Part shown: positions 65-64,000 of the stretch, piece by piece
How positions within the stretch are numbered: the first letter of the stretch is position 1
How the letters are laid out: each line of letters begins with the position of its first letter
DNA from: a virus
IMG/VR virus record: IMGVR_UViG_3300029811_000161
DNA length: 64,000 nt
Reading direction: 5' to 3' (one strand)
Notes under the pieces: model-generated
Seen by the model: the letters and a program-made list of their open reading frames with translations, nothing else
The model's database searches: none
Told to the model about the DNA's origin: nothing
Program-made: the position numbers and the translations under genes

Positions 65-1321
65 ATGGCAAGAACACCTGGATCGAAAAACAAACTGAAG
101 ATTACTTATCGCTGCGAAGATTGTGGAGAGATCGGTTCATCGCCGAAGAAGTGTCCTGAGTGCGGGAGTCCGCATGTGCTCGAACTTAACAAACACGGCA
201 TACCGATAACTGACATGCAGAATGCCATCGGTGCACAACCAGAGATCCCGATGGTGATTGGCTCTGCGCCGGATATCATGGACCCTAACGCCGAGATGAA
301 GAAACTTGTCAGCGATGAGCAATCACAAGCAATCGCCGAGATGACGCTCGACAAGGTGAAAGCGAAGGCTGCTGAAGCTAAAGCGGAGAGAATACGTGCG
401 GAAGAAGAGCTCGGTCTAACTGAGAAAGGCTTCCGACCACCGAAAAAGGAAGAGCAAGAACAAGAAACGATGATGACGCCGCAGCGCACGATTGGTATGG
501 ATCCATCGATGTTGTTGCATGGGATTGGTAAGTGGGATCCAGAGGCAAGAAAGGATCTCTTCGATCGGTTGGCACAAGATGATGACTTCGCATTGAACTG
601 GTCAAGAGCATTCAACGCCATGCCACAGCAGCAAATGCCGATGAATGCCCAGCAGACGATGAATCCGTGGATGAACCCGATGATGATGGGACAACCGCAG
701 CAAGTGCAGCCGGAACCGGAATCAGCCTCATCGATGATGACTGCTGTTATCACTGCCGTGGCACAGATTCAGGAGCTATCTGGTGGGAAGGGCAACGATA
801 ACGCAGCACTTGAACGACTCATCGATAAGATGGATCGGATGGAGGAACGACATAATGAGCAAGCCGACGCCATGCGACAGCGAATCAGCGAGATCCAGCA
901 GAACCAGGGAAACAATCAGATCACACCACATGATGTACAAGCAATGATTCACTCGACAATCGCGAACTCGTCAACCGATCAACTTGCCGCAAGCATCGAA
1001 TCGATCAACGGGGTGGTAACGGGGTTACAAAGCCTCGGTGTTGTCCATCGTATTGACGATCGAGCAAGCGACAAAGAAGATTTTGAGCATGTGAAGTGGA
1101 ACAAGGAGTTCGAGCTCAAGAAATCGAAACACGAGTACGAGCGAAAACGTGAAGAAGACGAATCTTTGCAGCAAGCAAAAATCGAGCTCGCCAAGCAGGA
1201 GACGACGCAAGGGATGCTTAAGATGATGGTGGACGTGAACAAGGAGTCAGCGAAAGAGATCGACGAAGAGAAGGAGGAAGAGAAGCCAACATCGATGCCG
1301 ATGCGGTCGGTGGTATCATGA
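65..1321 (+). CDS. Hypothetical protein: N-terminal Zn-ribbon, Q/M/P-rich middle, coiled-coil C-terminal half
   Basis: CEDC..CPEC; MPQQQMPMNAQQTMNPWMNPMMMG; E/K/Q-rich helices. Confidence 0.8.
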   Translation: MARTPGSKNKLKITYRCEDCGEIGSSPKKCPECGSPHVLELNKHGIPITDMQNAIGAQPEIPMVIGSAPDIMDPNAEMKKLVSDEQSQAIAEMTLDKVKAKAAEAKAERIRAEEELGLTEKGFRPPKKEEQEQETMMTPQRTIGMDPSMLLHGIGKWDPEARKDLFDRLAQDDDFALNWSRAFNAMPQQQMPMNAQQTMNPWMNPMMMGQPQQVQPEPESASSMMTAVITAVAQIQELSGGKGNDNAALERLIDKMDRMEERHNEQADAMRQRISEIQQNQGNNQITPHDVQAMIHSTIANSSTDQLAASIESINGVVTGLQSLGVVHRIDDRASDKEDFEHVKWNKEFELKKSKHEYERKREEDESLQQAKIELAKQETTQGMLKMMVDVNKESAKEIDEEKEEEKPTSMPMRSVVS

Positions 1322-1998
1322 CCTCGATCACTGTATCCCCAGATGGACAGTGGTACATCGTGACGTTCTTCCCCGATGCGGTTGAGGAAAGCGTCGAAAC
1401 AAACGAGGAGAAAGGTTGGAAAGTGACAACCGGATTCCTCGATGGAGAGGGTGTGCCGATACGGGCGTACTACAGGCAGGACATGTACACACTCGATGAT
1501 GTCAAGAGATTCGCCGAAAACCTGCGAGAATGCGAGATCTGCAAACGACTCGGACGGGATATGAGCGTAACATCCATCGATGTTGCAAACAACTACAACC
1601 GTCGTGAACAACCCGCGTTTTCCGGTCCAGGAATCGGGTTGAACCGGAGACAGCAGCCAAGCGCACCGATCGGCGACGCCGGAAACGTGTTCATGGACAT
1701 GCTCTTCAACACGCTCGTAGATACGACTTTAACACCACTTGGTAAGATCATGACCGCCAAGATCACCGGGAACGATGCTCTGCTCGAGCAGGCACTTCCG
1801 AAGTCAGACGAAGAGGCGTTTAACATTACGGCAGACTACTTGTCAGCAGACACGCCGAAAAACATGATCTTCAGGAATCCGAAAGAGATGAAGGAGATCG
1901 CAACTGCCTTGCGGGCAAGAACACGGATGCCAGAAGAAGTCGAGGAGGAAGAGAAGAAGCCGGTGTATCGGCGTGCCCGAACAGTGATCATATCGTAA
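1318..1998 (+). CDS. Hypothetical protein coupled to the upstream ORF
   Basis: ATGA start/stop overlap, GGTGGT SD, 226 aa. Confidence 0.8.
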   Translation: MTSITVSPDGQWYIVTFFPDAVEESVETNEEKGWKVTTGFLDGEGVPIRAYYRQDMYTLDDVKRFAENLRECEICKRLGRDMSVTSIDVANNYNRREQPAFSGPGIGLNRRQQPSAPIGDAGNVFMDMLFNTLVDTTLTPLGKIMTAKITGNDALLEQALPKSDEEAFNITADYLSADTPKNMIFRNPKEMKEIATALRARTRMPEEVEEEEKKPVYRRARTVIIS

Positions 1999-2018
1999 AA
2001 CGGGTGCCCAGCGATGAA

Positions 2019-2282
2019 TCACTGAGCCGGTAACACGGTTTTCAATTTTGGATCATAAAAAACCTTTATGCCATTTATCCAAATTTCTCGTTTATTCCAA
2101 TCAACGAAAAAATGGCAGCATTGTTTAAATGTTCCATCTTCATGATGTTGTTTTGACCATCTGACAGTTGTACCCTTTTCAGGATATTCGTAGTCACTTA
2201 AAACTTCTTCGTTTGTAAGCAGTTCTTTAACAACCATGATATTATCTACTTGACCATCAAAAGGATGTTTGAGTTCTGTCAT
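2019..2282 (-). CDS. Hypothetical protein in AT-rich patch
   Basis: 87-aa ORF downstream of an RHH gene on the same strand. Confidence 0.6.
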   Translation of the reverse strand: MTELKHPFDGQVDNIMVVKELLTNEEVLSDYEYPEKGTTVRWSKQHHEDGTFKQCCHFFVDWNKREIWINGIKVFYDPKLKTVLPAQ

Positions 2283-2294
2283 ATCATCACCAAT

Positions 2295-2444
2295 TCAATC
2301 ATCTTGTCTCTCTTGTTCAAGTCTCTGTAACACCCATTGTCGCAATAACGTGCTGGTTGGTAGATACTTACTTTCAGCGATGTGTTCTATCTCGATGAGT
2401 CGATCGGTTTCTAATCGGATCGAAACGTTTTGTTTTTCTGTCAT
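2295..2444 (-). CDS. Ribbon-helix-helix (CopG-like) protein, 49 aa, below ORF-track cutoff
   Basis: Hand translation MTEKQNVSIRLETDRLIEIEHIAESKYLPTSTLLRQWVLQRLEQERQDD. Confidence 0.65.
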   Translation of the reverse strand: MTEKQNVSIRLETDRLIEIEHIAESKYLPTSTLLRQWVLQRLEQERQDD

Positions 2445-2509
2445 ATATCATAATTGTATTGCATTATACTTAAATGTGTCCATTGTCAAACCGTTGCATG
2501 AAATTGACG

Positions 2510-6012: not shown

Positions 6013-6828
6013 ATGAGAACATCAAAATCAGTACGAAACAATGTGTTCGGGCGGCTAACCCTTGACCAGATGATCGTCGCGATAATCGCATTATCGATTG
6101 TCGTCGGATTCCTTAAGTTCGCAATAGCAACGAACGGAATGATCCGGCTTGGATGTTTTATAATTGCGCTGGCAATTCTGTTGCTGTACATCGGTTTCTT
6201 CATGAAAGAATCTGTCTTATACAACTCGCTCGCATTGATACGATATGGTTTCGATTATGCGAACGGCGGAACCGAGATCACGAAGCATTCGTGTAGCACG
6301 GCATACTTGAAGAAGAACGCCCGGCTGCCGATCGAAGGGATCAGGGAACGTGGGATCATAGAGTTCAGCGAGAAGCAATACGGGTTGTTGTTGCGGTTGC
6401 ACCCGCCGCGCAGAAACGACCAACTGCAAGCATATATAAATCGGCTTAAAATGGTCGTGGACTCGATCCCCGACGGAATAATGCTCAAGACGCACACATT
6501 CAGCGTTATCGAAGCGAAGCATCCGCTCATCGACCAGATACGAACCGCGATCATCGACAAGGGTACATCGAAAGAGAAAAAGAAGTATTTGCATTCCCAA
6601 CACACAGCGGCACGTAACCAACCACCCACGATCGGATGGATGAGCTACGGGGTCATCGGGTTCGGAAAGCACAAGAAAATGGACGCCGTGATAGCTGTAT
6701 ATGACACGCAGGCGGCGGGGGTCATGAAAGCACTTGCCGACGCAGGCATTCACGGCGACATAATCGACGACGAATACGACATCCTGCTTGCGTATCGTCA
6801 GATGCTATCGATGAGGAGGGTCTACTGA
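6013..6828 (+). CDS. VirB3/PrgI-like membrane protein with cytoplasmic domain
   Basis: Two N-terminal TM helices after FGRLTLDQ; directly precedes the ATPase. Confidence 0.55.
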   Translation: MRTSKSVRNNVFGRLTLDQMIVAIIALSIVVGFLKFAIATNGMIRLGCFIIALAILLLYIGFFMKESVLYNSLALIRYGFDYANGGTEITKHSCSTAYLKKNARLPIEGIRERGIIEFSEKQYGLLLRLHPPRRNDQLQAYINRLKMVVDSIPDGIMLKTHTFSVIEAKHPLIDQIRTAIIDKGTSKEKKKYLHSQHTAARNQPPTIGWMSYGVIGFGKHKKMDAVIAVYDTQAAGVMKALADAGIHGDIIDDEYDILLAYRQMLSMRRVY

Positions 6829-9308
6829 TGAATAAACTTTTCAGGAAAGTTCGCGACTATCAGAAGGCGGGGCAGTACAAAGCCCAAGTAAAAGAATTTG
6901 AGAAACTGGGGAGAGAGCGATGGCGGACGGTGGCACGAGACATTGCCCCATCACATATCAAATACCGCCCAACATACGTGAAATGCGACGACACGCTGAT
7001 CAAGTACATCTTGGTCGGCGTGACCCGGCACGGCACCCGAGGACTGCCTAAGAAGCTTACGCAGGACATTGTGAGCGACCTTCAGGATGTGACGCTTGGG
7101 AACTACACGATCGGAATCACGTCGTGCGTCGAACCGATCCCAGCACCCGAGACGAACCGGATGCTGGCAGAGGCTGAAGACATGAACCTCGGGAACCGCA
7201 AGGTCGAGCAGGAATCAAATAAGAGCACGTATGTTTCAGCGGACACTCGTTTTGATATGGACGACATCAACGAGACGATCCGAGCGATTCATGACAAGAC
7301 CGATAAGCTGATAGGATTCACTGAAATTATCTCGATCCGGGCAGAGGATGAAACCTCAATGCGTAATGCGATTGGGCATGTGCTTCAAGTTCTAGATAAC
7401 CACGGTGTCAGGGCGGAACAGCCTGTGGGAACTACGAAGGACATGCTGCAAACCTCGATGCCATTTCCGTTCATGCCGACATGGACACAATCAGAGTCTT
7501 TGAGCCATCAGGTTGCGACGTTCCTCGCGATCACGAACATCAACAGCGAGACAGACGAGCGGGGGCTTCGGTATGGCGACGACATGGTAACCGGCGACCC
7601 GATAATCGTCGATCTCGAAAGACTCCCAGCGATGCACCACCTATTTGTCGGCGAGACGGGGTCCGGGAAGACCACGGCGGTACTCGCGTATCTACAGCGG
7701 TTGTGCATCCAGCTCGGCTTTAATGTCGTTCTGGTGACTCCCAAGAAGGACGACCTCACAAACTACCGAAACGTCGCCGCATCGCTTGGTGACGATGCCG
7801 AGATCATCGACATCGGACCGAAGGCGGACAACATCAATCCGTTGCAGATTGTATACAATCCTGAATACATCGGTGATCATCCTTACGATTGGGCAGCAGT
7901 CGTGCACAACCATGTGAGCCTTGTTGTGCGGTTTTTCACAGCGTTCCTTGAAGACGGGATGACTGCCCCAAAAAGGAGCTACATCAACGAGTCGCTCATC
8001 AGACTATACAAGAATTGCGGCATCGATGTGAGCCGTCCTGAAACACTGAAGCAGTCGCTCGCCATTGGTAATTTCCCGTGCATGAATGATCTGATTGAGT
8101 TGTGGAAACAGGATCTCGGCGAAGCAGGATACACGGCGAGAGTACAGACGATTGACTCGATGATTTCAAACACGTTTCAATTATCATCAACTGGATCACT
8201 GGCGTACATGAATAAACCATCATCGATATCAGTTGATAAGGAGTTCACCGTGATCGACGTGTCCGGGGTTCCGCCGGAAGCCCTCGACGCCATGAATGTA
8301 TTTGTTACTGGGTTGATGTGGCAGAAGTTCAGGAACACTCGAAAGAGCGGAAAGCCGACCATGATCGTGATCGATGAGGCGAGGGTCTTCTTGCAGGATA
8401 AGACTCTGATGATGCAACTCACACAAGCAAGGTCAGAAGATGTTGGGATTGGGTTCTGCATCCAGCAGCTCGCGGATCTGACGATGCACAAAGTCGAGGA
8501 CATCGTGAAGACGAACGTATTTGTAAACGTCGTCTTCGGTCCTGGGGGCGATGCTGGCAAACTCTCGCTTGTATCCAAATATTTCAATCTTACCGATGAG
8601 GATGGTACACGGTGGATACAGTGCAACACCGGAGAGGCGATGTTGATAGTCCGGGGACGCAAGACGCCGATCAAAATCACCTTAACCGACTACGAGCTCG
8701 CGGTGATCAAGGGCACCGAAAAAACTAACATCGAAGATCCAGAATACCAACCGCCTGCTATTGCTTTCGGGATTGATGAGCAGGTGCGGGCATTGGTGGA
8801 TGAACACGACGTCTGCCTTGATTTGTGGACGTCCGGAGATGCCGGGCACTACTTCGGAGCGCTCGGATGGCAGACACACTCAACACAGGACGCGTTCTCT
8901 GCTGGAAAGGTCAGGACGTGGGTGAAGCCCGGCAAAATCAAGAACGGGCACATACTCAACCAGACTACCGATCACTACATGACCGTCGTTCAGATCGCTG
9001 GAAAACTGCTGGTATCGGGCATCGATGATGTGGTCGTGTCGCACCACGACAGCGTAGACGTGTCGGCGCAGATCCGCGATGAACGGATCGCGTTCGAGTA
9101 CGAACGTCCTAGCTCCCACACGAAGGATGAACTCACGGGCAAGCTTTTGGCGGCGGAAACCAACCACAGTCGCTGTTATTTCGTTGGCAGCACAGCGAAC
9201 GAAGGGTTGCTCAAAAACGCAGTCGGCGAGCACAATGTCATCAAGCGTGGTGCAAGCCTAAAACAGCTAATCGACATACTAACACACCAATCAAATCAGG
9301 AGGTATAA
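6828..9308 (+). CDS. virB4: VirB4/TraC-like P-loop ATPase with extra C-terminal PD-(D/E)xK-like domain
   Basis: Walker A GETGSGKT, Walker B MIVIDEAR, INPLQI motif, 826 aa; C-terminal VDV...IAFEYE. Confidence 0.8.
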   Translation: MNKLFRKVRDYQKAGQYKAQVKEFEKLGRERWRTVARDIAPSHIKYRPTYVKCDDTLIKYILVGVTRHGTRGLPKKLTQDIVSDLQDVTLGNYTIGITSCVEPIPAPETNRMLAEAEDMNLGNRKVEQESNKSTYVSADTRFDMDDINETIRAIHDKTDKLIGFTEIISIRAEDETSMRNAIGHVLQVLDNHGVRAEQPVGTTKDMLQTSMPFPFMPTWTQSESLSHQVATFLAITNINSETDERGLRYGDDMVTGDPIIVDLERLPAMHHLFVGETGSGKTTAVLAYLQRLCIQLGFNVVLVTPKKDDLTNYRNVAASLGDDAEIIDIGPKADNINPLQIVYNPEYIGDHPYDWAAVVHNHVSLVVRFFTAFLEDGMTAPKRSYINESLIRLYKNCGIDVSRPETLKQSLAIGNFPCMNDLIELWKQDLGEAGYTARVQTIDSMISNTFQLSSTGSLAYMNKPSSISVDKEFTVIDVSGVPPEALDAMNVFVTGLMWQKFRNTRKSGKPTMIVIDEARVFLQDKTLMMQLTQARSEDVGIGFCIQQLADLTMHKVEDIVKTNVFVNVVFGPGGDAGKLSLVSKYFNLTDEDGTRWIQCNTGEAMLIVRGRKTPIKITLTDYELAVIKGTEKTNIEDPEYQPPAIAFGIDEQVRALVDEHDVCLDLWTSGDAGHYFGALGWQTHSTQDAFSAGKVRTWVKPGKIKNGHILNQTTDHYMTVVQIAGKLLVSGIDDVVVSHHDSVDVSAQIRDERIAFEYERPSSHTKDELTGKLLAAETNHSRCYFVGSTANEGLLKNAVGEHNVIKRGASLKQLIDILTHQSNQEV

Positions 9309-38989: not shown

Positions 38990-38990
38990 A

Positions 38991-47460: not shown

Positions 47461-47634
47461 ATGCTAAAAGAAATCCTATCCGAAAACACGGACGAGATAA
47501 TAGCGATCTCAGTTGTTGTGCCAACAATCATTGTACTTGGTTACCAAGCGATTGTAGGAACCGACATAACGATGCCAACAGAGCCAGCGATGATCATACT
47601 TGGCTTTTACTTCGGCAAAAAGGTGGCATCATGA
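47461..47634 (+). CDS. Holin-like two-TM microprotein, 57 aa, not in ORF track
   Basis: MLKEILSENTDEIIAISVVVPTIIVLGYQAIVGTDITMPTEPAMIILGFYFGKKVAS. Confidence 0.55.
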   Translation: MLKEILSENTDEIIAISVVVPTIIVLGYQAIVGTDITMPTEPAMIILGFYFGKKVAS

Positions 47635-49085
47635 AACTAACGAACATCTTAATTGTCGCATTGGTCATCATCTCATCGATTGCTGTTGCGATGGCTTCTG
47701 AAGAATCCGAGAACCTGCGAGCGATACAACAAGAGATCATCATCGATGGTGTTGACTGGGAAGCCGGCATAACGAGTGTCTCTGGTCTTACCGATGCGGA
47801 GAAACGACGACTCGCGTTGCCAGGTAAAATCCCAAAGCCAGACGGCATGATTGTAACCGCACCATCGATGAGAGCACTATCCTACGAAGAGAGTTTTGAC
47901 TGGCGAGATCATGGTGGTGTAACCTCAGTGAAGAGCCAAGGATCATGTGGATCATGCTGGAGTTTCTCGGCGATTGCTGCGGTTGAATCGAAGTTCCTCA
48001 TCGATGCTGAAAAGAATCTCGACCTCTCGGAGCAACACCTCGTTTCAAGTTGTTGCAATGCCGGAAGTTGTAGTGGTGGATGGCCCGACTGGGCACTTGA
48101 GTACATCCAGAACACCGGTGTGCCAGATGAAGCGTGCTATCCCTACACGGCGAGAAATGGCGACTGCGATCCATGCGCTGGATGGGAAGACCGGGCAAAC
48201 CAGATCGAGGGATATGTCTACGTCGAACCAAGCACAGACAACTTCAAGTGGGCACTTAAAGAGTACGGCCCGATTAGCGTTGTGGTGACAGTTCCGGATG
48301 ACTGGTACTATTATCGATCCGGGATCTACACACCAACCTCCACGCCCAGCGATGGAGTGTGCTGGGCGAACCACGCAGTTCTCTTGACAGGATGGGATGA
48401 TTCTGATGGATGCTGGTTCATCAAGAACAGTTGGGGCGCAGGATGGGGAGAAAGTGGTTTTGCACGTGTAAAATGTGGGGATTTGGAACAATACCACTAT
48501 GCCTACGCAGTCACGGGCATAATCGACCACGGAGCATCACCCGACAATGGAACGTGGTTCAAGCCAATCTCTGCAATAGCATCGTCAGAATATAGTTCAT
48601 CTTACGCATCGATGAAATCCGTTGACAACAATACCGGCACATACTGGTTCTCGGCACGGAACGAAGAGAACCCCACAATCTCGTTCGACCTCGGACAACT
48701 CCTAACGATCGACAAAGTGCGAACGATGATCTTTCACCGAGACGTGCCAATGACCCTAAACATCGACGTGTCATGCGATGGAGAGCACTGGCACACCGTT
48801 GCAGAGGACTTCGTGATCGAGACTGGGTCAGAGTATGTCGAGATTCCGTTCGCGCCAGCACGATGCCAGTATGTCCGAATGACGCAGACAGAGACTGCCA
48901 GAGTATACGGCACTGTAACCGAATTCGGTGTCTTTGTCACCGAAGACGATCCAGAATATGATATGTCGGTGGTGCTACATTACGCAGGGTTGCCGAACAC
49001 AATCATCAACATCGATGAGGGTCTGACTTCGATTACGCTGCTTCGAGGCAACGAAACCGTTTTAGTTTGGTACAGCAACATTTAA
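47631..49085 (+). CDS. Secreted papain-like cysteine protease (C1A) with C-terminal discoidin (F5/8 type C) domain
   Basis: Signal peptide at 47631; QGSCGSCW, NHAVLLTGW, IKNSWG; ASSEY..W..FDLG..YVR. Confidence 0.92.
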   Translation: MKLTNILIVALVIISSIAVAMASEESENLRAIQQEIIIDGVDWEAGITSVSGLTDAEKRRLALPGKIPKPDGMIVTAPSMRALSYEESFDWRDHGGVTSVKSQGSCGSCWSFSAIAAVESKFLIDAEKNLDLSEQHLVSSCCNAGSCSGGWPDWALEYIQNTGVPDEACYPYTARNGDCDPCAGWEDRANQIEGYVYVEPSTDNFKWALKEYGPISVVVTVPDDWYYYRSGIYTPTSTPSDGVCWANHAVLLTGWDDSDGCWFIKNSWGAGWGESGFARVKCGDLEQYHYAYAVTGIIDHGASPDNGTWFKPISAIASSEYSSSYASMKSVDNNTGTYWFSARNEENPTISFDLGQLLTIDKVRTMIFHRDVPMTLNIDVSCDGEHWHTVAEDFVIETGSEYVEIPFAPARCQYVRMTQTETARVYGTVTEFGVFVTEDDPEYDMSVVLHYAGLPNTIINIDEGLTSITLLRGNETVLVWYSNI

Positions 49086-52315: not shown

Positions 52316-52393
52316 CACAATCTTTATATCATCGATGTTACCATATCATAGACTTGGAGAAAGGATTTCCCCCTATTCTACGTCGAGGTGTAC

Positions 52394-52627
52394 ATGTTTG
52401 AAATAGACCAAAGTGTTGCAGCGAGTGGTAAGCGAATATATGGTGAACTTGAATCGATGCTCGTGGCAACTTCACCAGGGCAATACGTTGCAATCGAGCC
52501 GGTGTCAAAGGAGTACTTCATCGATAAGTCGATGGGTGGAGCAATAGCAAAAGCGAAAGCGAAATACCCAGCGAGGACGTTTTACTCAACTGCAATCGGA
52601 AAGCTGGTACATGTGCCGGTGAGGTGA
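52394..52627 (+). CDS. DUF5678-like small protein
   Basis: PGQYVAIEP..YFI...AKAKAKYP. Confidence 0.65.
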   Translation: MFEIDQSVAASGKRIYGELESMLVATSPGQYVAIEPVSKEYFIDKSMGGAIAKAKAKYPARTFYSTAIGKLVHVPVR

Positions 52628-52629
52628 TC

Positions 52630-53040
52630 ATGCCAGTAATCTCTACCATCGATAGTGCGGGATCGGTGAGGATGAATGTGTCGATCATTGGGTCATGCAC
52701 GACATCTGAGCACTCGGCGATATTTGATTCCGGGTTTAGTGGAGACATTGTACTTCCGATCGAGATTGCTGTGCGCGTTGGTCTTGAGCATGGCGGAATA
52801 ACCACGGTAGAACTTGCCGACGGTTTTACACAGGATTTCCCGATCTTCTTGTGCGAGATTGACATCGGTGGAATAAAACAACATGCAGCGGTTATCGTGA
52901 TGGGCAACGAGGTGCTTATTGGCATGGGGCTGATGGAGCCGTTCAAGATGTGCATGCAGAAATCCACATCGGAGGTCATCTTTGAACCGGCGGGGTCGTA
53001 TGCAAACTTTGTCGGGATGATGGGGAGAATAACGAGGTGA
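52630..53040 (+). CDS. Clan AA (retropepsin-like) aspartic protease
   Basis: AIFDSGFSG, VELADG, VLIGMGLM. Confidence 0.85.
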   Translation: MPVISTIDSAGSVRMNVSIIGSCTTSEHSAIFDSGFSGDIVLPIEIAVRVGLEHGGITTVELADGFTQDFPIFLCEIDIGGIKQHAAVIVMGNEVLIGMGLMEPFKMCMQKSTSEVIFEPAGSYANFVGMMGRITR

Positions 53041-53041
53041 C

Positions 53042-53167
53042 ATGAGAATGTCAGACACCGATGGACACGAGGATGAAAACGTCCGTATATCAGTTGTTTC
53101 ACAATCATTCTCCGTGTCGTTCACGTCTGATCCAAATGGTGCAAACATAGCGTTTGAAAAGGTGTGA
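53042..53167 (+). pseudogene. 41-aa remnant ending in the start of a PEGA domain
   Basis: FSVSFTSDPNGANI then stop. Confidence 0.35.
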
Positions 53168-53171
53168 TAAC

Positions 53172-54266
53172 ATGGCAGTAACTCTTGAATGGGTACGTGA
53201 TAATTACGATACCAACAAAAATCGGTACATCGAGAAGGACGAGACTGCAAAAGCAGTCAATGACTATCTCCTTACAAATACGATAACAAAAGAACAATAT
53301 ATTGCTGTTCAAGCTGCGTATGAGAAACAAACGCAACTGCCGCCGTATACAACACCACCACCAACAACAGCGAGAGGTCAAATAGTCAGTATCGATCCGC
53401 CACCAAGTGCCAAGCACAACGAGCGTGCTGTGGTAAACGTAACAATCAAAAACATCGGTGGTTCGGATGGATCTTTTAAGGTGCAGGTTAATGTGACCGC
53501 AAGTTATACAAAGCTGATATCACCAGGGAACACGGCGGTATTCGCAGTGCATGCTTTAACCCCAAGCACTGGTACAAGTGCGACGTTCACATTGAAGTGT
53601 ATTATTGATGGGACAGTCGACGCCACGAAAACATTCACGATCACGCTAACACCACCACCGACAACTGTAACTCTTGAATGGATCAGAGATCGTTACGATG
53701 CCAACAAAGATAGTTATATTGATAAAAGTGAGACTGCAAAAGCACTGAACGATTATCTTTCAGCGAAGACGATAACAAAAGAACAATACGATGCCGTACA
53801 ATTGGCATACGACAACCAGACTTTATTACCGGCTTATCCAACTCCCCCCGTAAACGGCGACATCGACCCAGATTTAACAACTCCGGATGTGAGATCATTG
53901 GAAGCAGGAAAATACAATATTACAATAACGAAAAGCGGTTACAACACGGTGTACGCGACGATAACAGTTTCATCGGCGGGGCAAGTGTCATGTACCGATG
54001 CGGTTTGTCTTGCGTCTGGCTATCCACGTGTCGAAGCATCCGTCACATCGGTGAAGGTGTACATGGCGGCAGCGGCACCTCCAACAATTGCAAAATGTAC
54101 TTGGATAGCAACTAAAGACACATCAAAAGTTGCATTCATATCCGAGTTGATATTGGCATACAATCATATACCAGACTTGACATTCCCGGTATTATCAAAA
54201 GAAATCTCAGATGGTATTTTGATGTATAACAACTTAGGAACACCACAAACACTGTGGGGGTGTTGA
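53172..54266 (+). CDS. Surface/virion protein with two dockerin/EF-hand-like repeats, CARDB-like domain and PEGA-like segment
   Basis: Two VTLEW.RD.YD.NK..YI.K.ETAKA.NDYL repeats; VNVTIKNIGGSDG; YNITITKSGY. Confidence 0.75.
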   Translation: MAVTLEWVRDNYDTNKNRYIEKDETAKAVNDYLLTNTITKEQYIAVQAAYEKQTQLPPYTTPPPTTARGQIVSIDPPPSAKHNERAVVNVTIKNIGGSDGSFKVQVNVTASYTKLISPGNTAVFAVHALTPSTGTSATFTLKCIIDGTVDATKTFTITLTPPPTTVTLEWIRDRYDANKDSYIDKSETAKALNDYLSAKTITKEQYDAVQLAYDNQTLLPAYPTPPVNGDIDPDLTTPDVRSLEAGKYNITITKSGYNTVYATITVSSAGQVSCTDAVCLASGYPRVEASVTSVKVYMAAAAPPTIAKCTWIATKDTSKVAFISELILAYNHIPDLTFPVLSKEISDGILMYNNLGTPQTLWGC

Positions 54267-54268
54267 CA

Positions 54269-55234
54269 ATGACTCTAACAACGAATGGATTAAATTGGCT
54301 CGCTCAGAATGCAGGCATCGGAAACTGCTTCGCGTCGAGCGGGATAAATTACAGAGACGCCGATAACATCGCACAATCTGGTGGGACGAAAGATGTTGTG
54401 AACGCGTTTCTGACAGCGAATTTGGTTGGGAAACCAACGGCAACAATCATCGCCGGAACAAGTTATAATGGGTTCAAGTCGATCAACGATAACAGAGATC
54501 TTGCTTTCGGTGATGTCGGCGAGGCTGCTGATAGAGAAGCGGATGGTGGGACGTATCCACAGTACTGTGTTGGAGTAACGCCGACACCACCAGGGGGCTG
54601 CACACTCGGAACCCGCCGATGCGTTGGTAACAAAGTGGAAGAGTGTAGAACAGTTGCAGGACAAGATAATGCATGGTTCGACACCGGGATCGTGTGTGAA
54701 TTCGGGTGCACAAATGGTGTATGCAACCCTGCGCCCGGAGAACCTGGTGGAACTACAGAAACACCGCCGTTTGAGGTGGTCATCGTAGAAGGAAAACCGT
54801 GTCCAGCAGGTGCTCCAGATGTGTTACTTGACACCAGCGAGGCGTTTGCATACTTCAAAGCCGAGCCAGTGTTGTATGTTGGTGTGATGAAGATAGATGT
54901 GACCAATCGTGATCTCACTGGTAACGAATGTTACGCGTATTTCGCGTGGGAGATGCGGATGTGGCCAGGTGCAGCCGGTGCAACATGCCCAATCACCACG
55001 CCGGCACATCAAACGATCAGTCGTTTCCTTGGAGAGGTGTCTGCCAAGAAGGTGATCTCGGTAAAACTGTTGGGTGCAAACGAGAAAGCAATGATTGGTG
55101 GGTCGTTTGAGATACCATCGCACTTCAGGGGAAAGTACACACTATGCTTGACACTATGGGGCAACTTTAGCAAGCAAGCACTTCTTGATGAACTTCTGTC
55201 CGAGCGTGGATACGCAGAAGAGCTACCGTGGTGA
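54269..55234 (+). CDS. Cys-rich putative virion protein
   Basis: CTLGTRRC..C...CEFGCTNGVC module; beta-rich C-terminus. Confidence 0.65.
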   Translation: MTLTTNGLNWLAQNAGIGNCFASSGINYRDADNIAQSGGTKDVVNAFLTANLVGKPTATIIAGTSYNGFKSINDNRDLAFGDVGEAADREADGGTYPQYCVGVTPTPPGGCTLGTRRCVGNKVEECRTVAGQDNAWFDTGIVCEFGCTNGVCNPAPGEPGGTTETPPFEVVIVEGKPCPAGAPDVLLDTSEAFAYFKAEPVLYVGVMKIDVTNRDLTGNECYAYFAWEMRMWPGAAGATCPITTPAHQTISRFLGEVSAKKVISVKLLGANEKAMIGGSFEIPSHFRGKYTLCLTLWGNFSKQALLDELLSERGYAEELPW

Positions 55235-55237
55235 TCA

Positions 55238-55588
55238 ATGATGCCAGTACTACGCTACCCAAGGGTTCAACTGCGTCCGGTTGTAGCGGAGACTGGTCCG
55301 ATTGGCGTAGGAGCACCAACCCCAACACCAACACCGACTGTCCCGACAAGTCTGTTCGTGATCAAACACAACAACTTCATCGATCAGGTTGAATCGTTGA
55401 ACCGGGGCTTCACCAGAGCGGACATATTCGGGTTCACTCCGGAAGAGCTCGAAGACCATATCGCAGTTGCGCTACAGGACAATTACATCATCGAGGATGG
55501 TTCTAATACTGGACATTTCGTGAATGGTCAGGTTGCTTGGAGGCACCGGGAATACACGAAAGGATATGTGTATGAAAGGTTGTATTAA
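55238..55588 (+). CDS. Hypothetical protein with PT-rich linker
   Basis: APTPTPTPTVPT. Confidence 0.65.
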   Translation: MMPVLRYPRVQLRPVVAETGPIGVGAPTPTPTPTVPTSLFVIKHNNFIDQVESLNRGFTRADIFGFTPEELEDHIAVALQDNYIIEDGSNTGHFVNGQVAWRHREYTKGYVYERLY

Positions 55589-55593
55589 GTACC

Positions 55594-55848
55594 ATGCCAG
55601 TCATTGCACAGTTCGTGTTTACCGGGGATTTCAAAGAGGACGGGATAGTCGAGATTCTACGCGACGAGATCGACGAGTGTGGATGTGTGTCGCTACAGTC
55701 CGGTGTCGAGCGGTTCAAGGTGTCTATTGACCGTGTACGCAGCATCTTTGCTGAAATGGATGGTGTAACCTGTGATGAGGAAAAGTGCTGTGTGACTGAC
55801 CTCTCGGCGTTCTCGGCGAACATGAAGAAGCTTGCAGGTGGTGAGTAG
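55594..55848 (+). CDS. Hypothetical acidic protein
   Basis: 84 aa; in frame with the following giant ORF. Confidence 0.65.
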   Translation: MPVIAQFVFTGDFKEDGIVEILRDEIDECGCVSLQSGVERFKVSIDRVRSIFAEMDGVTCDEEKCCVTDLSAFSANMKKLAGGE

Positions 55849-55851
55849 AAA

Positions 55852-58800
55852 GTGGCTACCTGCACACAGTATTTCTATGCTGAAGATGATGCAGGCAATT
55901 CACTACCAGTCACGATCGACGCCACAATATCGAAGTACACTGCGGAAGGGTGGGTGCCTGACGGTGTTGTTAGCATCTCACCTGGTGGGCTGGGTTCGCG
56001 TACGTTGGTAAGTGGAAACAGTTATAAAGCGCTTCCGGTTACTATCCCAAGTGGCTATGAAACCCCGTCCGAGCAAATATTTACTGCGTGTGACAGAGAT
56101 GTAAAATTTGTTTACGAACGAATCTGTCCAGATCCAACCGTCTCGATAACATCAGTTTCAAATTATAATCCTGCATCTGGAGAGACCGTAAACTTCGAGG
56201 GTTATGCATCCGGAGGAACCGGGGAATCGATCAAAAGTGTGCGATGGGACTTCGGCGATGGCACGAGTTCAACAGCGTTGAACCCATCGAAGGCGTGGAC
56301 AAATACCACTGGCTCGCCGGTAACTTACACCGTCACGTTCACCGCTACGAACGACTGCAGAAAGTCGAAATCATCATCAACGACGATTACGGTTGCCTCG
56401 GCGATAGTAGAAACTGGGTTCAAGATACAACTTGCTCCATCACTAAGTGGCAAACAACTGATTGTTTGGCATGCCGTAAAGTTCCCGTTTATTGGATTAG
56501 TTGGACCAGATCCAAATCTATGGTTTTCGGCTTTTGGGTGGGTCAGAGGATCGTGGAACTCACCGGCGTCTGGTACATACAAAGTCGAAGTTGGTGACAT
56601 ACGCGAAACAGCAACACCACCTTTCGACGAAGTCCATCTCGGCACGCTTTTAGATGGACAGTTACACGACGGCGACGATTGTGTCGTGTTGGCAAGGGAA
56701 TCGCCATCGGTAATGGGGTTCGGGGTATTCAAAGGAGAGGACATATTCAAGATACACAGCGATTCGGTGACCGAGATCAATCTAACCACTGCATCAAGTG
56801 ATGTCATAACCGAAGCGATAATGGGACCGACGTGTGACTTCTTTAAAATACCGAGAGGACCCGAATGTGAGGCATTTTGGGCAGAGTTCTCGGATCATGT
56901 GTTTGTTGCTAACTACATCAGCATATTAACCACCGGAAAAGACACACTCGGCAACGCTCGAACTCTTGGATTCTTCGATCATATCGCACTGCCGTTTGCG
57001 ATGATCGGAGTCGTGGTTCCAGCGGTGCCGTTCAATCGGTTCTTCTCGCAAGGTCTCAGGGGACTGTGGAGAGGTGCAAAACCGTTCAGCGATGCGGCAG
57101 TTACTTGGATGGGTACAGTTGTTGTGAACGTCCCGGAGAGCAGGCTTGCCGCTATGGGGGACTGGAATTTCATGCAGGCGATCGTCCGTATCGATGCCGG
57201 TGGTGTTGGCGGGCACATGGATGAGATCATGGATCTCGTTGCCGACGAGAGATTCACCGAGGCACTTGCTAAACTCGAAGGATATCTTGACACCGACACA
57301 CCGCTTTCTTACTGGGACTGGAAAGTTTTCAACGATGCACTTAGAAAAGCTGTCGGGGACGCAGAGTTCAGTTGGCTGATGGATACGATTCATGCAACCA
57401 AAGCAACGGCTGATTCAGTACTCGATGTTGCTAAGAAATCAAGTTGGTCTGCAGACGACATTGCTAAAATCAACGATGCCGCGACAAATCCGAATATTGT
57501 AAAAGCCGCGTCTGATGCTATATCAAATTCGCTGAGAACGGCAGATGAAATAGCCGATCCGGTTGTGAGAGCAACAAAGCTTGGCGAGCTTGAGAACATC
57601 GCAGAGAGTTTCCCACAAGCGTTCGATGAAATAGCCAAAAAACCAATCGCTGAAGTCGGTGCGTTGGTCAAGCGTAGTAGCTGTGAAACTCTTGGAGTAA
57701 AAACCACAAAAGCAAATAAGCAACTGATTACTTACTGTTTCAAGAAACGGTTCGATAATGTTCTTCCGTACTCGCTTACGAAGGTAGAATGTGATGGCAT
57801 CATTTGGATGGTCAATCAAGACCCAATCGCAGCAGCAAAAGCGTTTGACGATTACACCGATTTGGCTGACAAGGAACGGTTGCTTTTATCTCTCAAACAA
57901 TCTGGCACAGACGGACGTTTAACTGCATCGTGGTTATCGGCGGCAAAAACAAACATCGATCTCGATGGTGTTTATGATCTGTATGGGATGAATGTGCACG
58001 AGGTCATGAATCATGTATCTCAAGCTGGCAACTATGCTCTTGGCGGGATATATGACAATCTTGGCGTCAAGGCTATGGACGATGCTGCAACAAGAATTCC
58101 AAGCTTCACACATGTAGAAGACGTAAACAAGTTCATTCAAGAAGTGTCGGATACAGTCAGAATATCATCGGTTGGGGACAACGCAGCGAAGATAGCACAA
58201 GACGCGATCGATGATAATCCGCGGAGCATCTCGCAGATATTCCAAAACGCCGGAGTTGATGTCATCCGCTCTGATGCACTCGGAAATGGAATCTACGATG
58301 TATCTGAGTTCATCGAAGTACTCGGAGACCATGTGAACTCGGGCGATGTTACAAAGATAGTGGCACGTATTATTGAAGACGACATCGTTGCAAACAAAAT
58401 TGTTATCAGGAACACAATTAATCGAATCGTTGGTGATGGGGCTATCAGCGATGATGGGTTGCAAGCAATATTTGATATTAGAAATCAAAGTCCAGAAGCA
58501 TGGAAACGTGTCATGAAAACGATTCCGGCTGACGTGGTTGCGACGCTTAACAACATCATGGATAGCAGTGGTAAGGGCAGAGCTTTTATCCAATTGGAAG
58601 ATTTATATAATGTTTTCCGATCAAAGATGGATTCTGCATATGGTGCAACTGTAGGAGAAGCTGCTGCAAGATTTAGATATCGGACTGCGCCACTCGCGTT
58701 GCGGTATGATCGAGCAACGGGTGGTTCTGGGTTTTTCAATTCTTTTGCAAGACATGGCGGTCTAAAAGGGATTCTTAGAAGCAAGTATGTTTTGGCATAC

Positions 58801-60324
58801 ATGGCAGCATCGATGGGGGTAACGGCTGGAACAGCAGTCGTTTTCTGGTATCTGTTCGAGTGGTCACCAATTCGATATGGACTTCAAAAAGCAGGTAGAT
58901 TACCATTGCCAATTGCCGATTGGTTTGGCAATGTTAAAAATGATAGCACCTTCACGACCGCGGAGTTCAGAAAGACTACCGACAGTGCAATGTATCAGAA
59001 TCTCATGATTGAGGTCGCTGGAAAGCTCTGCGAATTGGTGGATTATGGAAACAAAAATCCAGTAATCAACGATGATAAATGGCAGGAACTTGTAGATGGA
59101 TGGAATTTTTATTTTGGGATAGGGCAGGGTCCAACCACAACTTCAATGCATGAAGAGATGGTGGATACGCTTGAAACCCACTTGAAAACATATAATGAGT
59201 GGATTACCAATTGTGTAAACGATGGTGAATGCGTAAGTGGCGCCCCTCTATGCATCACCGCTGACATGATCTGGGCTGAGAGGGCAGGAAAGACCTATGC
59301 CTTGTCGTCTGCTGCTGAGTACAAGACAATCCTTGATGCAACATGGGCATGTGTTCCAGAACTGCCGGAGACTGGATCGGTCTTCTGCACAGTGACATCA
59401 TCGATGGGGCACGATGCTATAGTCACCGATGCATACGGTGTCAAGCTTGGCACAATCACGAATGCAAGTGGTTTCTGGGTCACAGGCTTGGCACTTAACA
59501 TAGATCATGTTTTAAAAATCGTTAAAGATGGGAACTATACCGAATGTGCAGAGACGTTTAGGTTTACTGAAGCAGATCCAGAGCAAGCGTTTCCATGTGA
59601 CATAAACTGCACCGATTGGGTTGATACCGTAACCATCGCAACGACGATGGAAGATGGCAGTCCAGCCGTTGATATCCAGCCTGGCGACACGCTCAAGTTC
59701 ATAGGTGCTGCGACAAGCGCAAGAGTAATCACTGATTGGTTGTGGAACTTCAACGATCCGCACTGTCCTACTGCTGACAACACGTCAACTCTTCAGAATC
59801 CGTCTCATCGATACGAGGGAGCCGGTATTTTCCCGGTGACGTTAACGGCTACAAATGTGTGTGGAAACCCGAAAGCGGGTGATGCGGAAGTGTGGGTGGT
59901 GGGTGAAGAACCTGCACCACCGGGAGTAGAATCAGCAACAATCGATGTGCTACTACCGATCGACTCACAAACCGGCAAGACAATTGTGTGGCCAGTCGAA
60001 GTACACATATTTGTCGATAACCAAACAATCGATGAAAAGGCACGGTATGCAATACCGTTTGGTGGATTCGGCGAGTTGCCAGTTAGAGACCCAACTAAGG
60101 TGACGGTTAAGGCAACCGGTTATCAGGACAAATCGGAAACATTTCACTTGTATGATGGATTCAGTGAGACATGGCAGCCGTACATGGACCCGGTAGGATA
60201 CGTGCCGCCGGTTGACAAGTTCGCAATTAATTTCTACATCCCCGATGGTGCATCACTGACAACAACTAAGATCACGACGGTTTCAAGAATCGTAACCGGA
60301 ATGCGAAGGATACAAGGAAGATGA
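55852..60324 (+). CDS. 1490-aa protein with two PKD domains, central helical region and TM segment
   Basis: WDFGDG and WNFND PKD motifs; YVLAYMAASMGVTAGTAVVFWYLF; no signal peptide. Confidence 0.8.
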   Translation: MATCTQYFYAEDDAGNSLPVTIDATISKYTAEGWVPDGVVSISPGGLGSRTLVSGNSYKALPVTIPSGYETPSEQIFTACDRDVKFVYERICPDPTVSITSVSNYNPASGETVNFEGYASGGTGESIKSVRWDFGDGTSSTALNPSKAWTNTTGSPVTYTVTFTATNDCRKSKSSSTTITVASAIVETGFKIQLAPSLSGKQLIVWHAVKFPFIGLVGPDPNLWFSAFGWVRGSWNSPASGTYKVEVGDIRETATPPFDEVHLGTLLDGQLHDGDDCVVLARESPSVMGFGVFKGEDIFKIHSDSVTEINLTTASSDVITEAIMGPTCDFFKIPRGPECEAFWAEFSDHVFVANYISILTTGKDTLGNARTLGFFDHIALPFAMIGVVVPAVPFNRFFSQGLRGLWRGAKPFSDAAVTWMGTVVVNVPESRLAAMGDWNFMQAIVRIDAGGVGGHMDEIMDLVADERFTEALAKLEGYLDTDTPLSYWDWKVFNDALRKAVGDAEFSWLMDTIHATKATADSVLDVAKKSSWSADDIAKINDAATNPNIVKAASDAISNSLRTADEIADPVVRATKLGELENIAESFPQAFDEIAKKPIAEVGALVKRSSCETLGVKTTKANKQLITYCFKKRFDNVLPYSLTKVECDGIIWMVNQDPIAAAKAFDDYTDLADKERLLLSLKQSGTDGRLTASWLSAAKTNIDLDGVYDLYGMNVHEVMNHVSQAGNYALGGIYDNLGVKAMDDAATRIPSFTHVEDVNKFIQEVSDTVRISSVGDNAAKIAQDAIDDNPRSISQIFQNAGVDVIRSDALGNGIYDVSEFIEVLGDHVNSGDVTKIVARIIEDDIVANKIVIRNTINRIVGDGAISDDGLQAIFDIRNQSPEAWKRVMKTIPADVVATLNNIMDSSGKGRAFIQLEDLYNVFRSKMDSAYGATVGEAAARFRYRTAPLALRYDRATGGSGFFNSFARHGGLKGILRSKYVLAYMAASMGVTAGTAVVFWYLFEWSPIRYGLQKAGRLPLPIADWFGNVKNDSTFTTAEFRKTTDSAMYQNLMIEVAGKLCELVDYGNKNPVINDDKWQELVDGWNFYFGIGQGPTTTSMHEEMVDTLETHLKTYNEWITNCVNDGECVSGAPLCITADMIWAERAGKTYALSSAAEYKTILDATWACVPELPETGSVFCTVTSSMGHDAIVTDAYGVKLGTITNASGFWVTGLALNIDHVLKIVKDGNYTECAETFRFTEADPEQAFPCDINCTDWVDTVTIATTMEDGSPAVDIQPGDTLKFIGAATSARVITDWLWNFNDPHCPTADNTSTLQNPSHRYEGAGIFPVTLTATNVCGNPKAGDAEVWVVGEEPAPPGVESATIDVLLPIDSQTGKTIVWPVEVHIFVDNQTIDEKARYAIPFGGFGELPVRDPTKVTVKATGYQDKSETFHLYDGFSETWQPYMDPVGYVPPVDKFAINFYIPDGASLTTTKITTVSRIVTGMRRIQGR

Positions 60325-62645: not shown

Positions 62646-63216
62646 CTTTCATAGGCTCAGGGAAGAACGCTGTGTAGTTCCATTCTGTGCTTGACACCAT
62701 CGATGAGTATGCATCGATAAGTTGTGTTCCGAGTGTAAACGGGGTGTGTAAACGACGTCCGTGGTGTTCTCCATATCGATACAGCCGTATGGTCTGCATA
62801 TCTTCACCACGCAGCGTCTGAGCGACATAACAAAAAACATGATCTGGCACGATCTTCTTTACCGCTTCATCGACGCCTGCTGCAATCTTGTCAAGACACT
62901 CTTCACCGATTGATTTAAGATCGCCGTCCGGAGTGAAGCCGTGGTCTTTGTGCCAACCGTAAGCATGTTTGTGCCATGTGTTATCCCGATCTTTGTTGTG
63001 GTATTCTATCGTTGCAATCGGCGACTGTTGGAATGTTGGGAATTCAGCTTCGATCAGCAGGTCGTATATTGCGTTTCGATCGATTGTACCGGCTATGGAT
63101 CGCTCAATCTCAGAAAGGGTTTCATGGACGAGACGTTTCTGTGCCCAGATACCATCCATCGACTCTTCTAAAGACAGATCGTAGTCTTCGAGGTGTAATA
63201 GTTTATGTTGGTTCAT
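62632..63216 (-). CDS. Hypothetical protein
   Basis: GAGG SD supports start MNQHKLL at 63216. Confidence 0.65.
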   Translation of the reverse strand: MNQHKLLHLEDYDLSLEESMDGIWAQKRLVHETLSEIERSIAGTIDRNAIYDLLIEAEFPTFQQSPIATIEYHNKDRDNTWHKHAYGWHKDHGFTPDGDLKSIGEECLDKIAAGVDEAVKKIVPDHVFCYVAQTLRGEDMQTIRLYRYGEHHGRRLHTPFTLGTQLIDAYSSMVSSTEWNYTAFFPEPMKDGCD

Positions 63217-63217
63217 T

Positions 63218-63406
63218 TCAGTATCCTCTATCATACCGCGTAACGACTCGTAGTGCGACTGCTTTACCATCGTTGTTTCGGATAACGTGCAGTTCTTCAA
63301 CGACGTTGTCAATCGCATCCAAGTGTTTGTACTGGTAGTCCATGTCGTGTATGTTGTCCAAAATGGACGAAAGCGCGCTCTTGAGGTGGCTTGTCATTTC
63401 AATCAC
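63218..63406 (-). CDS. Small helical protein
   Basis: Loosely resembles 61476-61700. Confidence 0.55.
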   Translation of the reverse strand: MIEMTSHLKSALSSILDNIHDMDYQYKHLDAIDNVVEELHVIRNNDGKAVALRVVTRYDRGY

Positions 63407-63765
63407 TCATCGGTTTCCTTCCAGTCACACTCTTCGAGAGCAGCGATCAACACTTTTCCGCTCATGACGATAAGTTCTGGGTTGTCTGGATTAGGCAAAT
63501 TGTGGTTTAGACAGACAGTGTAAGACACGTCATCATCGATCGTGTGCATGGAATTATCTATCTCATCGATGATTTCTCCAAGTTTCGTAAGCAAACGCAG
63601 ATCAAAGTCGAGGTTCTCGCAGTGTCCACGTATGACTTTTTTACCCATTTCATCAGAGTATGGAACGCCGTCTACCAAATCAAGCAGATGTTGTTTATGT
63701 GCTTTTACATAGCGATCCATCAACTTGATTTGTTTTTTCATAGCTTCAATCGTTTTCGTATTCAT
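63403..63765 (-). CDS. Mosaic hypothetical protein sharing C-terminal module with 60957-61469
   Basis: HTID.DVSY.VCLN.NLPNPDNPELIVMSGK. Confidence 0.7.
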   Translation of the reverse strand: MNTKTIEAMKKQIKLMDRYVKAHKQHLLDLVDGVPYSDEMGKKVIRGHCENLDFDLRLLTKLGEIIDEIDNSMHTIDDDVSYTVCLNHNLPNPDNPELIVMSGKVLIAALEECDWKETDE

Positions 63766-63766
63766 T

Positions 63767-64000
63767 TCAATCATCTCCTTTTGCTTCGCGTTCTCCGAGT
63801 GTGAGGTACTTGCAGACATGCGCATACTCGTGAACCTTTTTCTCGAACCGGGCGATATCGGCGTCGCAAACCGCTTTATCGCTATCGAGGATACCGTCAT
63901 ACTCGCTGATTGACAGATACAACGATAGCCGGATCATCGATGAGAACTCCATTCGCAGGTGACCACCCGCCGATGCAAGGTATCCTTTGCACCATACCGG
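63767..64000 (-). CDS. 3' part of a paralog of 14650-15414, running off the window
   Basis: PVWCKGYLASAGGHLRMEFSSMIRLSLYLSISEYD aligns with PKWCKSYIGMVGGRLRMDFSSVLRLAMYLSISKYD. Confidence 0.85.
   Translation of the reverse strand, partial: PVWCKGYLASAGGHLRMEFSSMIRLSLYLSISEYDGILDSDKAVCDADIARFEKKVHEYAHVCKYLTLGEREAKGDD

Follow-up and report, generated by a model that had tools for sequence, protein, structure and literature searches.

Organization of the element and its iterated palindrome

We analyzed a 64,000-nucleotide stretch of IMG/VR virus record IMGVR_UViG_3300029811_000161 (hereafter the window), which belongs to a mobile element encoding a VirB4/TraC-like ATPase with conserved neighbours, RecT, a primase-like protein, a helicase, an XPF/Hef-type ERCC4 nuclease and a YpsA/DprA-like SLOG protein, together with a glycan operon, a papain-like protease and beta-helix proteins. 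Dispersed through the window are 80 exact copies of the palindromic octamer CATCGATG (hereafter the word), spanning positions 504-63942 at a density of 1.25 per kb, or about one site per 800 bases. An earlier note on this DNA, made from the letters alone, had counted about 80 copies where about one was expected; the exact count is indeed 80, at the same coordinates, and the order-0 expectation is 0.94. The ATPase marks the element family, and these two features are the main subjects of what follows.

6828..9308, plus strand: VirB4/TraC-like ATPase, marker of the element family, with weak Pfam matches to AAA_10, DUF87 and FtsK_SpoIIIE
504-63942, strandless (palindromic): the 80 copies of CATCGATG, starting at 504, 729, 1290, 1575, 3840, 4669, 8021, 9020, 9786, 9961, 11377, 11399, 11694, 11961, 12163, 12426, 14450, 14928, 15672, 16207, 16305, 16489, 16558, 17354, 18463, 18567, 20435, 20907, 21977, 22187, 22958, 23477, 23612, 23890, 23995, 24946, 25135, 25240, 25345, 25813, 27198, 28007, 29286, 29568, 30745, 31959, 32719, 32843, 33657, 33917, 34389, 39092, 39749, 40312, 41516, 41546, 41802, 42818, 44520, 44935, 45019, 47741, 47863, 47999, 48607, 49010, 49605, 49797, 50122, 52330, 58808, 59399, 60362, 60515, 60878, 61359, 61806, 62698, 63564 and 63935

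Dinucleotide-preserving shuffles of the window (n = 100) contained a mean of 3.23 copies (standard deviation 1.79, maximum 8) against the 80 observed. Markov expectations for orders 0 to 6 were 0.94, 3.2, 6.2, 13.8, 31, 53 and 75, with values near 80 coming only from models that already hold the word's own 6- and 7-letter parts. Under the order-3 model the word is the strongest outlier among all octamers (z = 17.8); it is also the most frequent octamer in the window, and its shifted forms rank next, likewise as outliers. The word is sharply defined, its 24 one-letter variants having between 1 and 17 copies each. Both flanks continue the palindrome in a weak, symmetric fashion (T at -1 in 46% of copies, A at +8 in 50%), and the longer form TCATCGATGA occurs 22 times. 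From the symmetry of the word and its weak flanks we infer that its reader would be a symmetric, dimeric protein acting on double-stranded DNA.

GATC (493 copies) and CGATCG (41 copies), which the earlier note took to be enriched as well, are not separate signals: both exceed the base-composition expectation only, Markov models predict 625 and 41, and GATC is equally dense in the likely host genomes. The window is nearly purged of GGCC (17 copies against 190 expected) and CTAG (7 against 246), and GGTACC, GCTAGC, CCTAGG, AGGCCT and ACTAGT have zero copies in it.

Copies of the word are spaced nearly at random, with 13 gaps shorter than 150 bases against 13.5 expected; the sole departure is a few word-poor patches (coefficient of variation 1.26, P = 0.014). 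Duplication was checked as the source of the 80 copies, and this is not the case. The only hint of local duplication among them lies at 23477-23647, where two copies 135 bases apart share about 25 bases of conserved context.

The spacing bears on whether the copies are operator sites of a transcription regulator, concentrated at promoters. Palindromes are read by dimeric regulators, the word is denser between genes than within them, and there are close pairs at 11377/11399 and 41516/41546. Against this, genes contain 65 of the 80 copies, start codons lie at no consistent distance from the copies in the regions read, and close pairs occur at chance frequency, so the promoter clustering proposed in the earlier note does not hold. 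We give the operator explanation very little weight. The further suggestion that the ATG within the word supplies start codons is plausible in a few cases only, the best being 42818, 61806 and 20435; at 42818 a Shine-Dalgarno-like match precedes the ATG.

The word is enriched at the level of DNA

Coding context was assessed with a greedily built set of 93 genes that together span 89% of the window. This set contains at least one wrong call, near 9360-10150, where the true gene encodes a DUF2227 protein (9436-9942). As the earlier note had observed, the word occurs in both coding and intergenic DNA: 65 copies fall in genes (1.14 per kb) and 15 between genes or on gene edges (about 2.2 per kb). 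All three reading frames are occupied, with 43 genic copies read as xxC-ATC-GAT-Gxx (Ile-Asp), 17 as xCA-TCG-ATG (Ser-Met) and five as CAT-CGA-TGx.

The concentration of 43 of the 65 genic copies in the Ile-Asp frame would be expected if the word were a by-product of codon or dipeptide usage (Ile-Asp, Ser-Met). However, shuffling synonymous codons within genes while keeping the proteins gave 16.8 ± 3.3 copies (maximum 28 in 300 shuffles), and shuffling codon order gave 3.7, against the 65 observed. A protein-preserving null of this kind had been named beforehand as a possible refutation, and the enrichment survives it. The proteins also contain more Ile-Asp dipeptides than expected (156 against 98), a surplus that belongs to the effect to be explained. 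Because protein-preserving shuffles yield 16.8 copies against 65, and because every frame as well as the non-coding spacers is affected, the enrichment stems from a force on DNA rather than from codon usage. The frame counts and synonymous shuffles refute the codon or dipeptide explanation, to which we assign essentially no chance.

Permissive peptide positions are spelled as the word in 63 of 108 cases in the first gene set and 58 of 98 in a stricter set (58-59%). The word is spelled wherever proteins tolerate it, and the force on it acts at the DNA level and reaches into protein sequence.

Enrichment is a trait of the element lineage

Relatives of the element were retrieved as contigs through the VirB4-like ATPase; percentages below are ATPase identities to the window, and many of these contigs are partial. 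Enrichment was found in L243 (91%; 0.80 copies per kb), L244 (78%; 0.37), L002-L004 (53%; 0.78-0.91), L246 (48%; 0.66), and L277 and L280 (47-48%; 1.28 and 1.42). In each of these the word is the top palindromic octamer, and across the enriched relatives 45% of permissive positions are spelled as the word. In L001 (87%) the enrichment has faded to 0.22 per kb and 14% of permissive positions, and L268/L269 (46-48%, GC content 38-42%) are not enriched, with 16% of permissive positions used. Some 45 more distant relatives (27-42% identity, mostly with GC content of 36-45%) displayed no enrichment of the word and no other iterated palindrome. One distant relative in an NCBI genome bin (L245:19931-22463) has Cas6b and RAMP genes beside it on the same contig. 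Enrichment is thus a trait of the element lineage, and close relatives differ six-fold in density despite similar composition.

Alignable DNA between the window and L243 (9.9 kb, 78% identity) holds five shared copies, five found only in the window and three found only in L243, and several of the differences are single letters. These alignments indicate that copies turn over by substitution and that enrichment decays once the factor maintaining it is gone. New copies arise by point substitution that alters codons and even amino acids.

All 56 homologues of the ATPase came from metagenomes; an ATPase-based search of species genomes returned no relative, and one of viral contigs returned a single distant relative. 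The only protein matches in phage and plasmid collections were VirB4-like genes of Firmicutes plasmids at about 20% identity, and no near-identical DNA to the window was found in those collections.

ANME-2c archaea are the likely hosts

The archaeal nature of the element, as the earlier note had proposed, is borne out by its XPF/Hef-type ERCC4 nuclease, while composition and relatives tie it to the ANME-2c group of methane-oxidizing archaea. Two genes of the window are relevant here.

32202..32930, plus strand: XPF/Hef-type ERCC4 and helix-hairpin-helix nuclease (Pfam ERCC4 4.3e-25, HHH_5 2.6e-12)
47451..49085, plus strand: papain-family protease with a discoidin domain (Pfam Peptidase_C1 7.9e-54), containing five copies of the word

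Among the models scanned, the nuclease matched NCBIfam Hef nuclease (4e-69) and archaeal Xpf (1.4e-28), an archaeal hallmark connected with recombination. The decisive clue to the host is the IS605 TnpB encoded by the relative L244 (4794-5948, upstream of the transfer module), which is 83-84% identical to ANME-2c proteins, with matches named Candidatus Methanogaster sp. ANME-2c ERB4 and ANME-2 cluster archaeon. A TnpB of this kind also occurs on a chromosomal contig of NCBI genome bin G407, a bin whose housekeeping proteins cluster at ≥90% with Methanogasteraceae and ANME-2c ERB4 records.

Composition points the same way. GC content near 50% is common to the element and 27 Methanogasteraceae genomes, GATC and TCGA are high in both, and GGCC (about 0.2 per kb) and CTAG (about 0.1 per kb) are jointly depleted in both. 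Tetranucleotide correlations between the element and this family were 0.76-0.89 (0.85-0.89 in samples longer than 17 kb), compared with 0.56-0.74 for other sampled Halobacteriota, most of which avoid CTAG as well. Depletion of GGCC and CTAG, seen in every sampled genome of this family, is a lineage-wide trait of chromosomes and elements, which goes beyond restriction avoidance by the element. The element is therefore host-like in this depletion and in its GATC richness; its excess of CATCGATG is not, because the likely host chromosomes hold that word at chance level.

Some genes are shared with the same family. ATPase homologues occur in three of the 27 family genomes and in two of 401 Halobacteriota genomes in our first sample, and the first 1.9 kb of the window matches a contig of one family bin (G464) at 67% DNA identity. 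Homologues of the protease occur in 20 of the 27 family genomes at 65-71% DNA identity, so the element and its likely hosts have exchanged this gene. Taken together, sequence similarity and composition make ANME-2c archaea (Methanogasteraceae) the likely hosts. The gene for a 111-residue protein at 30530-30865 is matched at 72-75% DNA identity in no fewer than seven ANME-2c family genomes, and L001 and contig G437:C1 contain matches at the protein level; it is a small gene found widely in both elements and hosts.

Likely host chromosomes hold the word at chance level

We searched 597 Halobacteriota genomes, all species representatives of that one phylum. The maximum density was 0.24 copies per kb, the same as in the first sample of 401; the maximum among 251 genomes of the order was 0.158, and the 27 host-family genomes ranged from 0.057 to 0.158, so the element is about ten times denser in the word than its likely hosts. 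In 128 kb of host-family genes we found 14 copies against 10.5 after synonymous shuffling and 9.7 after codon-order shuffling, and 14% of permissive positions were spelled as the word. The same comparison gave 60 copies against 13.9 and 3.0 for the window, and 40 against 8.0 and 3.2 for the enriched relatives. The shared protease illustrates the difference: where the element gene has five copies, five of the six host loci have none. At the positions of the word the hosts mostly encode other residues, such as Asp-Glu-Asn-Asn where the window has Ile-Ile-Asp-Gly, or Pro-Pro-Leu-Arg where the window has Pro-Ser-Met-Arg. The chromosomes of these likely hosts hold the word at the chance level for their codon usage.

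These counts bear directly on the resemblance to HIP1 (GCGATCGC), the cyanobacterial octamer palindrome described along with alternate highly iterated palindromes (Elhai 2015, PMC4390886). Like HIP1, the word studied here is an octamer palindrome with nested shorter palindromes, at about one copy per kb, present in every frame and in spacers; it shapes codon and amino-acid choice and spreads by point substitution rather than transposition (PMC4390886). HIP1 resides on cellular chromosomes and goes with orphan methyltransferases that read its inner words (PMC4390886). The present word is a different one, from another domain of life, on a mobile element lineage whose likely host chromosomes hold it at chance, and no DNA methyltransferase family was recognized among the 93 proteins of the window. 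The earlier note's comparison with HIP1 thus stands for an iterated palindrome selected at the DNA level across all frames and spacers, and falls for a host-wide signature.

A host-wide palindrome of the HIP1 kind would require a true host saturated with the word through methylation-linked repair or selection, from which the element took its signature. The phenomenology would fit, with nested TCGA and ATCGAT and all frames and spacers affected (PMC4390886), the host is inferred, and the genomes searched represent one phylum. However, none of those 597 genomes exceeded 0.24 per kb, and the matching family, at 0.06-0.16 per kb and 14 copies against 10.5 in shuffles, shows neither the methylation- or repair-driven signature nor the equal enrichment in archaeal genomes for which the earlier note had proposed screening. 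Host protease homologues mostly lack the word, no DNA methyltransferase was recognized in the window, and density varies six-fold among close relatives of similar composition. We regard a host-wide origin as decidedly improbable.

When species genomes were scanned for paired copies of TCATCGATGA no more than 30 bases apart, unrelated bacteria were among the matches listed, and the same scan on viral contigs gave chance matches. Four contigs in Thermoanaerobaculia bins (L124, L125, L171 and L191) have local stretches with 1.0-1.4 copies of CATCGATG per kb, arranged in one of the genomes partly as a 21-base periodic array; these clusters are local only, the whole genomes holding 0.05-0.09 per kb, and we rejected these bins as word-rich genomes. 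A search of one literature collection found no report of CATCGATG as an enriched motif, its many matches being a fungal internal transcribed spacer primer.

Gene content and word-poor modules

Pfam and NCBIfam scans of the 93 window proteins detected no DNA methyltransferase or restriction enzyme family, in agreement with the earlier note, which had recognized no methyltransferase. A single methyltransferase domain (39938-41476) sits in the glycan operon, adjoining a glycosyltransferase-like gene. An element-borne restriction-modification system of the ClaI type (ATCGAT) was rejected, no such Pfam or NCBIfam family being found in the window, with 2.8 kb of the contig lying outside it. A recombination gene and two stretches with few or no copies of the word deserve separate mention.

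15935..17137, plus strand: RecT-family single-strand annealing protein (Pfam RecT 8.9e-31; PHROG RecT-like 1.3e-33)
34397..39091, no strand: word-poor patch of 4.7 kb with zero copies, lying over a capsid-like gene and a minus-strand, low-GC glycan operon
52338..58807, no strand: longest word-free patch, 6.5 kb of late or structural genes

The RecT gene uses four of its six permissive positions; a structure-based look-up of RecT for a host clue returned phage RecT only. The glycan operon (36284-41476, minus strand) spells the word less often than the remainder of the window and has third-position GC content (GC3) of 0.41-0.46; the genes at 36284-38357, with none of three permissive positions used, have a GC3 of 0.43-0.46, whereas word-rich genes reach about 0.6. 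None of three permissive positions is used in the three genes on the epimerase side (36284-39004), and three of four are used in the two genes at 38991-41476. The operon fits later-acquired DNA that is still unconverted and looks like a later insertion. Epimerase homologues offered no host clue, the nearest named ones being taxonomically mixed. A gap as large as that of the longest patch (6478 bases) arises in 1.5% of random placements; genes at 53154-55234 use none of one permissive position there, and a 1490-residue gene uses two of eight.

Such patches, least word-rich where GC3 is low and the genes look recent, as if conversion took time, would be compatible with a mutational or repair bias of the element's own enzymes (RecT, the XPF/Hef-type nuclease or the primase-like protein) that needs no reader at all, and the element does carry its own recombination set. 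However, the transition neighbours CATTGATG (four copies) and CATCAATG (five copies) are not depleted relative to other central variants, and changes that alter amino acids imply a force above a weak bias. We know of no polymerase or annealing protein that makes one specific octamer, and consider this explanation improbable.

A probably selected word and its possible readers

Enrichment of CATCGATG that is centred on DNA, sharply defined and carried by an element lineage is best explained, and very probably so, as a selected, element-specific word. Our leading explanation goes further and is held more tentatively: it is quite possible that the word is a recognition word kept by selection on one VirB4-type element lineage of ANME-2c and is not a property of the host genome. 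That the reader is encoded by the element and serves DNA transfer, packaging or partition is also possible, if a shade less so. The alternative put forward in the earlier note, a binding site serving DNA handling, would remain the most favoured reading here. A site every 800 bases or so would then mark element DNA as its own for a DNA-handling machine, for which the first candidate would be a transfer or packaging apparatus around the VirB4-like ATPase and its nuclease-like tail.

8715..9305, plus strand: C-terminal 197 residues of the ATPase, a predicted nuclease-like domain and candidate reader or cutter (AlphaFold mean predicted local distance difference test score 89.7)

The leading structural matches to the predicted tail are all PD-(D/E)xK nucleases (Can2, Nt.BspD6I, Hjc, HindIII, PspGI and XPF), a range that spans type II restriction enzymes and Holliday junction resolvases. 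Residues D744, E757, E759 and K772 are invariant and form a D...E-x-E...K set, and the tail is conserved over the whole ATPase family, distant members included. The structural model tentatively suggests a PD-(D/E)xK nuclease fold, which would make the tail a natural candidate to read or cut a palindrome. Alternatively, the reader may be a small DNA-binding protein that travels with the ATPase apparatus. Small proteins near the transfer module belong to no convincing DNA-binding family, and the DUF2227 protein, the only candidate near the ATPase, was rejected, being present in the faded L001 as well.

Known words that guide DNA transport offer working analogies. HIP1 itself was recently proposed as an uptake word (PMC13756078). 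The DNA uptake sequences (DUS) of Neisseria and uptake signal sequences (USS) of Pasteurellaceae are short words at about one per kb by which a transport machine tells preferred DNA apart, and the density contrast of 1.25 per kb in the window against 0.06-0.16 in the likely hosts is reminiscent of them. They are asymmetric, whereas the present word is a palindrome; they are also abundant on the chromosomes of competent cells, which read them with receptors associated with pili. On Streptomyces conjugative plasmids, the TraB recognition sequence (TRS) repeats of the clt locus are an 8-base word read by the FtsK-like translocase TraB. That parallel may be close in one respect, since TRS are recognized by the DNA-translocating ATPase of a conjugative element, the role proposed here. 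TRS are, in contrast, clustered in one short locus and have a winged-helix reader, whereas CATCGATG is dispersed and the extra domain of the ATPase is nuclease-like. By a mode akin to these uptake and translocation words, the palindrome could be read from either direction. In its most specific form, an archaeal "self" word for DNA transport at which the ATPase tail or a partner loads or cuts, the idea is distinctly unlikely in our estimation; only element DNA would then move between ANME-2c cells or be packed into particles.

Several observations weigh against an element-encoded reader built around the ATPase, or against parts of the case for it. L001 keeps an 87%-identical ATPase and host-like composition and yet has lost the enrichment, so the determinant must be something variable. 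The nuclease-like tail is also present in relatives without enrichment and is for that reason not the whole answer, and its structural matches are middling (Z 5.2-6.8). A gene tracking the enrichment was sought through the gene content of the partial contigs, and none was found. The window's own transfer module is not its densest part, with four copies in 5.7 kb. An excess in conservation of word sites is not clear: 5 of 10 are conserved between the window and L243, compared with 21% of octamers in general, and similar control words score 9 of 23. The host assignment is indirect throughout, through transposase similarity, composition, binning and the shared protease gene. Host-family genomes gave no clustered regularly interspaced short palindromic repeat (CRISPR) spacer match to the element; short DNA matches considered as spacers were rejected, with no repeats around them. 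Finally, the window covers 64 kb of a 66.8-kb contig, and the remaining 2.8 kb lie outside it.

A tie between the word and the transfer module comes from contigs binned with ANME-2c, in which modules related to that of the window occur and the word is dense as well. One of them, G464:C164, has five copies of the word in 3.5 kb, and G474:C129 (ATPase 29-31% identical) has four in 2.6 kb. In the 44-kb contig G437:C1, eight of ten copies fall within the 11 kb starting at the module and two in the other 33 kb. A contig with the same kind of TnpB and an integrase, and without the transfer module (L321), has 0.09 copies per kb.

Enrichment in two ATPase branches that are only 29-31% identical, both binned with ANME-2c and of ANME-2c-like composition, would be expected under the main rival to an element-encoded reader, namely a reader encoded by the host. 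A nuclease, defence system or methyltransferase of ANME-2c would spare word-rich elements, much as Chi protects DNA from RecBCD, or quickly modify them, and selection would lift their density well beyond the chromosomal level. No enrichment is seen in branch members from AT-richer DNA, and the loss in L001 with the same ATPase fits a strain-variable host factor. As a palindrome, the word would also serve from either end of the DNA. RecBCD and AddAB are bacterial, and the comparison with Chi (GCTGGTGG) and Chi-rich phages extends to the idea that word density could shield an incoming element from a host nuclease; Chi is asymmetric, orientation-dependent and enriched in its host, whereas CATCGATG is palindromic and at chance in its likely host. 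That last point also tells against a host reader, the host chromosomes having no excess over codon usage when self marks such as Chi and DUS are normally enriched in the host too. The low density of L321, another element with an ANME-2c-type transposase, is a further difficulty, and to our knowledge there is no archaeal system in which a host-read word protects incoming elements. A host-encoded reader, and with it selection of the Chi kind, is in our judgement unlikely.

Implications for the element family

Three decades after they became known, iterated palindromes such as HIP1 have no agreed function, and they have been regarded as properties of cellular genomes. Here the phenomenon is found on a mobile element, with the likely host chromosome at chance. 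The word is thereby set apart from mutation or repair processes general to the host, and a reader acting on the element is indicated. CATCGATG offers a simple marker by which elements of about 65 kb in methane-oxidizing ANME-2c archaea, a family not described before, can be recognized, and word-poor modules show recent arrivals in such elements. The natural contrasts between L243 and L001 and between L002 and L268 may allow the responsible gene to be found. If the self-word proposal were true, a mobile element of archaea would for the first time be seen to carry a sequence-tagged system of DNA transfer, a functional parallel to DUS and USS and to the uptake role proposed for HIP1.

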